Source: Promethearchaeota archaeon (lineage in GTDB: Archaea; Asgardarchaeota; Lokiarchaeia; Sigyniarchaeales; SOKP01). Taken from it: a DNA stretch of 14,411 nucleotides. The stretch lies in contig JAFGOA010000085.1 in NCBI GenBank assembly GCA_016926735.1, positions 1 through 14,411 of the forward strand. The letters run 5' to 3'. The notes beneath the pieces were generated by a model, which was given only the letters and a program-made list of their open reading frames with translations, had not been told where the DNA came from and did not search any database. A program made the translations under genes and the position numbers. This document shows, in pieces, positions 3,844-14,411 of this stretch (position 1 is its first letter; each line of letters opens with the position of its first letter).

Positions 3844-3935
3844 TTTAATATATAATAATACTTAAATATATTAAAACTTATGATTCAATTTTGTTATCAA
3901 TTCTAAAATATAATAAAATAAGAAAAAAGATAAAG

Positions 3936-4125
3936 CGCCCCCGGCTTTCTCTAATATCTGTAATTCAGATATTATATGGGACTCGTTATGCTCAGATATT
4001 TAGCATAAACTCGAACATGCGACCGCCCGGTTAACTTCCGGAGGTATTATTTGCTTTAATACCTTAGCCGGGTGCTTTTGGCACACCGTTTATGGCGATG
4101 CTCTACCTAACTGAGCTACGGAGGC
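3936..4125 (-). tRNA. trnN: tRNA-Asn(GTT) with four introns (22/23, 33/34, 59/60, 63/64)
   Basis: Exons 4125-4103, 4076-4066, 4035-4010, 3979-3976 and 3945-3936 join to GCCTCCG TA GCTC AGTTAGGTA GAGC A CCCGG CT GTT AA CCGGG CGGTC GCATG TTCGAGC CATGC CGGGGGC G (74 nt, all four stems paired). Introns 4102-4077 (26 nt), 4065-4036, 4009-3980 and 3975-3946 (30 nt each) are hairpins with BHB/BHL geometry. The intron 1 junction is ambiguous by a few nt. CCA is not encoded. Confidence 0.88.
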
Positions 4126-4140
4126 ATACTTATGTTTTTG

Positions 4141-4243
4141 TGCTTCTGCCGGGATTCGAACCCGGGTCACGAGGGTGAAAGCCTCGGATGCATTGTCCTT
4201 AATTATTAATTAATTAAGTTTGGCCGGACTACACTACAGAAGC
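4141..4243 (-). tRNA. trnE: tRNA-Glu(TTC) with one D-arm intron (~21/22)
   Basis: GCTTCTG TA GTGT AGTCCGGCCAA|GCAT C CGAGG CT TTC AC CCTCG TGAC CCGGG TTCGAAT CCCGG CAGAAGC A. The 28-nt intron at 4219-4192 has an 8-bp hairpin (CTTAATTA/TAATTAAG). Anticodon at 4179-4177. Confidence 0.93.
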
Positions 4244-4597: not shown

Positions 4598-4701
4598 TGC
4601 GGGAAGGGAGATTTGAACTCCCGAACTCCTTTGAGAATGGATCTCTTCGAGAATTATCTCTTCTAAGTCCACCGCCTTTGACCATACTTGGCAATTCCCG
4701 C
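4598..4701 (-). tRNA. trnL: tRNA-Leu(TAG) with canonical 37/38 intron
   Basis: GCGGGAA acceptor pairs with TTCCCGC plus discriminator A; long variable arm (CTC/GAG stem); GGGAG TTCAAAT CTCCC T-arm. The 19-nt intron at 4661-4643 forms a BHB (CTTA/GAAG helix, bulges GA|A and AG|A, GAGA/TCTC stem). Confidence 0.92.
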
Positions 4702-13781: not shown

Positions 13782-13914
13782 TGGACCTGACGGGAATTGA
13801 ACCCGTGACCTCTTGAGTGCAATTCTTGCATAAAGTGCTTTACTTTTTCTGTGTCAAGCGATTTTGAATCAAAACCTTTCAATAGGTCAAAATCTTCCAC
13901 TGATCTACAGGCCC
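13782..13914 (-). tRNA. trnA: tRNA-Ala(TGC) with two introns (22/23 and 32/33)
   Basis: Mature GGGCCTG TA GATC AGTGGAA GATC G CTTGA CT TGC AC TCAAG AGGTC ACGGG TTCAATT CCCGT CAGGTCC A (72 nt) with the G3:U70 Ala identity pair. Introns are 13893-13863 (31 nt, helix TGGA/TTCA) and 13852-13823 (30 nt, helix CTTG/CAAG). Confidence 0.92.

Positions 13915-14009: not shown

Positions 14010-14411
<402 letters not shown>

Follow-up and report, generated by a model that had tools for sequence, protein, structure and literature searches.

Within the window analysed here, the whole stretch of 14,411 nt to which all coordinates without a contig name refer, we found a tRNA-Asn(GTT) gene on the minus strand at 4125-3936 that is divided over five exons of 23, 11, 26, 4 and 10 nt. 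The four introns measure 26, 30, 30 and 30 nt, and 116 of the 190 nt (61%) are intronic. They are located at Sprinzl positions 22/23, 33/34, 59/60 and 63/64, with 37/38 unoccupied, and the exon/intron boundaries are given in the BHB register (Table 1). The boundaries of intron 1 can shift by up to 4 nt with the spliced product unchanged, because the same four bases are present at both intron ends. The host was proposed to be an Asgard archaeon when only the letters of the window had been read, and this agrees with a thermosome whose nearest cluster consists mostly of Promethearchaeota and with the Arf/Roc GTPase and LRR genes found in the window's own genome (G000).

Table 1. The split tRNA-Asn gene, its neighbours in the window and the tRNA arrays on other contigs of G000. 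For the introns, paired positions of the central helix, length of the intron helix and length of the outer helix are given.
Feature	Position	Strand	Description
Exon 1, 23 nt	4103..4125	-	5' acceptor strand, positions 8-9, 5' D-stem strand, D-loop, first 3' D-stem base
Intron 1, 26 nt at 22/23	4077..4102	-	Relaxed BHB; central 3/4 (one A.A), intron helix 6 bp, outer 1 bp
Exon 2, 11 nt	4066..4076	-	Remaining D-stem, position 26, 5' anticodon stem, positions 32-33
Intron 2, 30 nt at 33/34	4036..4065	-	Canonical (HBh'); central 4/4, intron helix 8 bp, outer 0
Exon 3, 26 nt	4010..4035	-	Anticodon GTT, 3' anticodon stem, variable loop, 5' T-stem, T-loop to position 59
Intron 3, 30 nt at 59/60	3980..4009	-	Canonical (full hBHBh'); central 4/4, intron helix 7 bp, outer 3 bp
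Exon 4, 4-nt micro-exon	3976..3979	-	Positions 60-63; completes T-loop and T-stem, cf. intron-free orthologues
Intron 4, 30 nt at 63/64	3946..3975	-	Relaxed BHB; central 3/4, intron helix 9 bp, outer 1 bp
Exon 5, 10 nt	3936..3945	-	Last two T-stem bases, 3' acceptor strand, discriminator G
T6 run	3923..3928	-	8-13 nt 3' of the tRNA-Asn end, read from the sequence
tRNA-Glu(UUC)	4141..4243	-	Rfam 52.9 bits, anticodon from the Rfam alignment; 15 nt upstream of tRNA-Asn
tRNA-Leu(TAG)	4598-4701	-	19-nt intron
tRNA with two inserts	13782-13914	-	Inserts of 33 and 36 nt (Rfam)
16S rRNA gene	14011-14411	-	tRNA at 13782-13914 lies about 100 nt downstream of its 3' end
tRNA array L021	G000:C157:7086-8394		
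tRNA array L022	G000:C157:12331-13605		
tRNA array L023	G000:C42:7266-7742		Five tRNA genes

The 74-mer obtained by removal of the four introns was called as tRNA-Asn(GTT) by ARAGORN. It forms a cloverleaf with stems of 7/4/5/5 bp and a GUU anticodon at 34-36, and all 21 stem pairs form, one of them as G-U. CCA is not encoded at the 3' end, and the T6 run downstream of the gene is presumably an archaeal oligo-T terminator, judging from what is generally known of archaeal termination. The lowest-energy fold of the spliced 74-mer calculated with ViennaRNA differs from the cloverleaf; a minimum-energy fold other than the cloverleaf is common among unmodified tRNA sequences. The sequence-only reading had proposed a tRNA-Asn(GTT) with four non-canonical introns, and the cloverleaf together with the orthologues described below bears this out. 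Its intron positions and the 61% intron content were confirmed, and the sequence contains the motifs of introns 2, 3 and 4 exactly as that reading had given them.

In the raw locus ARAGORN made no tRNA call, and no Rfam tRNA match was obtained even at E<=10 over a 451-nt stretch, so the expectation that tRNA finders would miss the gene proved right for ARAGORN and Rfam/Infernal. A finder of our own lists candidate introns with BHB-like ends, splices out at most five at a time and passes each product to ARAGORN for a verdict. Run blind to the answer, it returned precisely the four Asn introns. From dinucleotide-shuffled GC islands, 80,506 spliced variants gave 0 tRNA calls as compared to 146 calls from 77,055 real variants. 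For the 190-nt precursor the folding energy is -61.4 kcal/mol (z = -3.75), with the acceptor stem closing the entire structure, and none of 200 shuffles folded as well. Under looser motif rules the finder yields many alternative, false products for genuine tRNA genes, and the exact boundaries of the Asn introns are therefore based on the orthologues and not on the finder alone. A census of G000 with the same finder gave 53 rows with 0, 1, 2 and 4 introns in 27, 21, 4 and 1 of them, respectively, but complement-strand calls are duplicated in it and many products longer than 80 nt remain. As this census is incomplete, it does not rank tRNA-Asn as the most interrupted tRNA gene of the genome.

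A DNA search in 40 relatives gave matches in 22 (23 of 41 genomes when G000 is counted), and within the same family in 21 of 24. The orthologue set that was examined comprises 20 loci, from G000 and 19 relatives; the matching genomes G009, G011 and G030 are outside this set. Spliced alignment placed 4, 3, 2, 1 and 0 introns in 5, 4, 5, 3 and 3 loci, respectively, with one of the two-intron loci truncated at a contig end. The five four-intron loci are those of all four genomes of the window's genus and of G023. As spliced sequences, 19 of the 20 loci were called as Asn(GTT) by ARAGORN, the exception being the truncated one, while the raw loci were called correctly in four cases (intron-free or with one canonical intron), wrongly in three and not at all in 13. 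The aligned orthologues carry zero to four introns around near-identical exons.

The intron-free orthologues L016-L018 are identical to the spliced product of the window at 69-72 of 74 (73) positions, with L017 reaching 72/74, and in exon 1 point changes are the sole sequence differences. Removal of the four introns restores a canonical tRNA as found in these intron-free genes. Across the 19 complete orthologues all 399 stem cells pair. Double compensatory changes occur in 4 of the 21 stem pairs, among them acceptor pairs that link exon 1 and exon 5; pair 6:67, whose two sides are in these exons about 180 nt apart in G000, is found as four pair types. The discriminator is G in 19/19 complete orthologues, and we take G73 to be an identity element for AsnRS. 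Within the genus the exons are identical at 72-73 of 74 positions and intron 1 at down to 18/33, and the intron ends that form the motifs are conserved. The genus's three other assemblies carry the same four introns (identities of 98, 93 and 85%), which excludes the assembly artefact that had been named as a possible refutation. In a contig of run X6, an independent marine-sediment metagenome, exon 3 is joined to the intron 1 region via 28 other letters over window positions 4035-4095; this contig is a relative's version of the gene without intron 2, like L011 and L012.

According to the methods of a preprint on Asgard tRNA genes (bioRxiv 10.64898/2026.10.13.758758), a BHB consists of a 4-bp central helix with a 3-nt bulge on each of its strands, where each bulge is cut once, and a flanking helix. 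Introns 2 and 3 have this structure. For intron 1 the sole register with 4/4 central pairs excises 24 nt and leaves two extra bases. In L006-L009, L011 and L012 the 26-nt register has 4/4 central pairs, with a T as the base that is mismatched in the window, and this fixes the register at 22/23; the sequences of the intron-free orthologues likewise disfavour the 24-nt register. The positions of introns 1 and 4 both carry 4/4 central pairs in relatives. Among the 45 orthologue introns, a canonical BHB was scored for 21 and a relaxed motif plus intron helix for a further 14, as compared to null rates of 0.8-0.9% and 1.6-2.9%, respectively, when the segment was moved or the intron shuffled (900 trials each). 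Six of the 45 were scored as having no motif, and at least three of these (intron 3 in L002-L004) are boundary artefacts of the aligner. Intron 2 is canonical in 10/10 loci that bear it, and its helix is kept in each of them even though the helix sequence in L009 and L010 is entirely different. Each Asn intron is single-copy in G000, where other matches do not exceed 17 nt, and intron mobility or copying was rejected on this ground. Introns 3 (3980-4009) and 4 (3946-3975) share an exact 9-nt stretch, which may be due to chance in AT-rich sequence or may be a trace of common origin.

The micro-exon between introns 3 and 4 is too short to supply the motif of intron 4 by itself. The 5' half of a BHB requires 6 nt upstream of the cut and exon 4 has only 4 nt, and the central helix of intron 4 is formed by the last 2 nt of intron 3 and 2 nt of exon 4, giving 3/4 pairs. 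If intron 3 were excised first, the missing bases would come from exon 3 and the central helix of intron 4 would fall to 1/4. If intron 4 were excised first, the outer helix of intron 3 would grow from 3 to 5 bp. For the window's genus this geometry predicts that intron 4 is excised ahead of intron 3. The exon 4 of G023 has 7 nt and supplies the full motif. As neighbouring introns share motif bases at the 4-nt exon, the predicted fixed order of removal offers a test of how an Asgard enzyme acts on crowded, imperfect sites.

Two EndA paralogues are encoded in G000, on contigs C33 and C100, with lengths of 203 and 202 aa and both PF01974 and PF02778 in each. The closest solved chains are 3p1z_B/3ajv_B for one paralogue and 5x89_A/1a79_A for the other, and one of the two is closest to chains of solved crenarchaeal two-subunit enzymes. 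The paralogues would assemble as (alpha-beta)2. A two-subunit EndA architecture has been reported for 44 of 60 Asgard genomes (bioRxiv 10.64898/2026.10.13.758758), which the pair in G000 fits, and this type of enzyme is described as able to cut non-canonical introns (PMC5829648). The ligase RtcB (PF01139) was not found in the G000 assembly, which is scored as 99.3% complete, and the RtcB region of the closest relative, on a 3.9-kb contig there, had no match in G000. Of 25 genomes searched, 23 have RtcB (22 of 24 relatives), including all three congeners, and its absence from G000 is therefore probably an assembly or binning gap.

From the observed gene structure, conservation, motifs and enzyme genes we infer the following course of expression. 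The split Asn gene would probably share a transcript with the tRNA-Glu gene, which lies 15 nt upstream, and the T6 run would end transcription. In the 190-nt precursor exons 1 and 5 would pair as the acceptor stem, and every intron would fold into a separate hairpin, with a BHB on display in introns 2 and 3 and a relaxed BHB in introns 1 and 4. The two-subunit endonuclease made of the C33 and C100 paralogues would cut the eight sites, with intron 4 leaving before intron 3 and its loss completing the outer helix of the intron 3 motif. An RtcB-type ligase would then join the exons, after which CCA would be added. No RNA run was found to contain the stretch, and nothing from two metatranscriptome runs matched it, a result that speaks neither for nor against splicing.

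An intact, intron-free tRNA-Asn(GTT) was also detected in G000 by both ARAGORN and Rfam, at C157:8321-8394, so G000 may not strictly need the split gene. Its GC content is 47% as compared to 66% for the spliced product of the split gene, and the two Asn tRNAs are distinct at many positions. An intact copy elsewhere, combined with a lack of spliced reads, had been named beforehand as something that would speak against the split gene; the first of the two, an intact copy, does exist. The split gene is the more tightly conserved of the two genes. Between G000 and G001 the array Asn is identical at 58/74 positions and the exons of the split Asn at 72/74, and this far stronger constraint argues that the split gene is still the main Asn tRNA or is needed.

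The intact copy is part of a set of dense tRNA arrays. On C157 arrays of 11 and 10 tRNA genes lie back to back, and together with the five genes on C42 they give 26 tRNAs for all 20 amino acids, a set that could suffice, if wobble and superwobble are assumed, to decode each of the 61 sense codons. Their GC content (39-63%) is below that of the dispersed tRNA genes, and the sole intron among the 26 is in tRNA-Phe, with a canonical BHB. ARAGORN made 21 calls in about 6.5 kb (C157:7086-13605), with Rfam scores of up to 66 bits, and C157 qualifies as a tRNA array unit, defined as at least 20 tRNA genes at a density of at least 2 per kb (PMC4758250). Dense arrays were found in 4/4 genomes of the genus, each with both arrays, and in neither G023 nor G004 of the neighbouring genus. 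The array tRNAs of G000 and G001 share 49-75 identical positions of 74-103, a much quicker divergence than that of the dispersed tRNA genes. Their stems are kept, with 36 double compensatory changes in 222 pairs, and they are therefore structured, fast-evolving RNAs and not debris.

A viral or contaminant origin of C157 was considered and rejected, as its GC content (26.0% vs 26.2%) and tetranucleotide use match those of the genome. Foreign DNA was likewise rejected on the basis of its genes, which encode Arf/Roc GTPases, LRR and WD40 proteins and aspartate-semialdehyde dehydrogenase. A phage collection gave a single 69-nt match to C157, to one tRNA, and no mobile-element genes were found among the 10 ORFs scanned. 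The arrays resemble the tRNA array units described for bacteria, phages and some Euryarchaeota (PMC4758250, PMC8421152, PMC6333295), but differ from them in the Asgard-type archaeal host and the ordinary chromosomal neighbour genes. An archaeal survey from 2019 reports tRNA clusters in Halobacteria and Methanobacteria only (PMC6333295), and our literature search found no report of an Asgard tRNA array. The intron-free array beside a split gene is the less expected part of the case. It is conceivable, though we regard it with some doubt, that the genus has two decoding sets: a conserved, GC-rich and intron-laden dispersed set that depends on EndA and RtcB, and a genus-restricted array that acts as a splicing-independent supply. 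If so, the array could, for example, stand in as a reserve or act as a decoy when tRNAs or the splicing machinery come under attack, or help during translational stress, and may have let extreme intron loads persist, such as the four in tRNA-Asn with their weakened motifs.

G023, which is scored as 100% complete, has a four-intron tRNA-Asn orthologue and no dense array. No other Asn(GTT) was found there among 30 of the 31 Rfam tRNA hits. Split genes of this kind can therefore explain tRNAs that appear to be missing, as the sequence-only reading had suggested. ARAGORN calls of 'Asn(att)' at C116:13781, C212:36799 and G023 L040 were rejected, with scores of 10-30 as compared to 120 for the true locus. 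G023 L053 was rejected as an Asn gene as well (score 60, anticodon CUU for Lys). In this locus (G023:C60, 76-181) an insert interrupts the T-arm/acceptor region of the tRNA with the CUU (Lys) anticodon; Rfam aligns model positions 6-65 only and ARAGORN is silent.

Taken with the orthologues, the sequence makes it very probable that 4125-3936 (-) is a functional tRNA-Asn(GUU) gene with four archaeal BHB-type introns that would be removed by splicing. It could also be a redundant leftover that is decaying into a pseudogene, with the array copy supplying tRNA-Asn and the introns accumulating under relaxed selection. The intact Asn(GTT) in the array would fit such a history, as would the co-occurrence of arrays and the four-intron state in 4/4 genomes of the genus and the motifs of introns 1 and 4, which are weakened in the genus as compared to the 4/4 central pairs in relatives. 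However, the exons are 72-73/74 identical within the genus whereas the array Asn reaches only 58/74, not one stem pair is broken, the motif-forming intron ends are conserved, and in G023 the four introns occur without a dense array. We therefore regard a decaying relic as unlikely.

The mismatch in the central helices of introns 1 and 4 would also be compatible with inserts, these two especially, that EndA does not remove and that leave by another route or are kept in a non-standard RNA, with no normal tRNA as a result. The preprint likewise describes a substantial minority of inserts without a canonical motif, and states that no insert at all has been shown to be spliced (bioRxiv 10.64898/2026.10.13.758758). 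Against this, the intron-free orthologues match the sequence expected from exact excision, and canonical motifs occupy the same positions in relatives. Formats such as hBH and HBh' are reported at splice sites of archaea with an alpha2-beta2 enzyme (PMC4090602), and a broad-specificity EndA is described as able to cleave relaxed motifs (bioRxiv 10.64898/2026.10.13.758758). We regard inserts out of reach of EndA as very unlikely. A chance resemblance or an assembly artefact has next to no probability, given that the shuffled variants gave no calls at all, that the locus is found in four independent assemblies of the genus and that a contig of the likely source run is identical to the window over 4018-4177. 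A functional gene with four spliced introns thus remains the reading that we adopt.

The sequence-only reading had called the gene possibly undescribed, and this does not hold. Introns have been reported in 92-95% of the tRNA genes of three complete Asgard genomes, with several in over half (PMC11291895, 2024). The preprint of October 2026 gives an average of 2.2 intervening sequences for each tRNA gene, and a maximum of five in one gene, in the families on which it focuses, Freyrarchaeaceae, Jordiarchaeaceae and Atabeyarchaeaceae, and states that tRNAscan-SE misses 30% of the intervening sequences (bioRxiv 10.64898/2026.10.13.758758). As heavily interrupted Asgard tRNA genes are already published, the four-intron tRNA-Asn is an example of a known phenomenon, and what the locus contributes is this example along with a prediction rather than a system of a new type. 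As far as the available text of the preprint goes, our case resembles its Asgard genes in having multiple non-canonical BHB-type introns per gene at sites in the D-arm and T-arm, inserts of roughly 22-30 nt that standard annotators miss, two EndA paralogues, an intron content that differs among close relatives and no sign of intron copying. In contrast, a tRNA-Asn, an obligatory splicing order, a 4-nt exon and a parallel intron-free array are not mentioned in that text.

Several non-canonical BHB introns per gene and a two-subunit EndA are also known from Thermoproteales (Crenarchaeota), and three introns per gene are described for crenarchaeal tRNA genes, as compared to four in the split Asn gene (PMC4090602). 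In Thermoproteales the introns form families shared between genes, at 28% as compared to 1.5% in Asgard archaea (bioRxiv 10.64898/2026.10.13.758758), and in G000 no copies were found. Among the literature matches listed there was no further archaeal case of a four-intron tRNA. The locus provides a clean, comparatively validated tRNA gene that is missed by both ARAGORN and Rfam, and annotations of such archaea can falsely score essential tRNAs as absent.

The tRNA-Glu gene next to the split gene, with which it is probably co-transcribed, contains a 36-nt D-loop insert according to Rfam and is miscalled as Val(GAC) by ARAGORN. Our finder gave no good BHB for this insert; the best candidate has 3/4 central pairs and no intron helix. 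The gene order Leu-Glu-Asn is common to G003, G004 and G023. At the other end of the window, the tRNA with two inserts has a G3:U70 pair and resolves most often as Ala(TGC). The 23S rRNA gene is absent from the remaining 13.7 kb, and the rRNA genes may therefore be unlinked. Elsewhere in G000, the finder returned a candidate tRNA-SeC(TCA) at C7:183-340 (+), which is 91 nt long once two BHB-like introns of 34 and 33 nt are taken out and has 30 stem pairs with zero mismatches.
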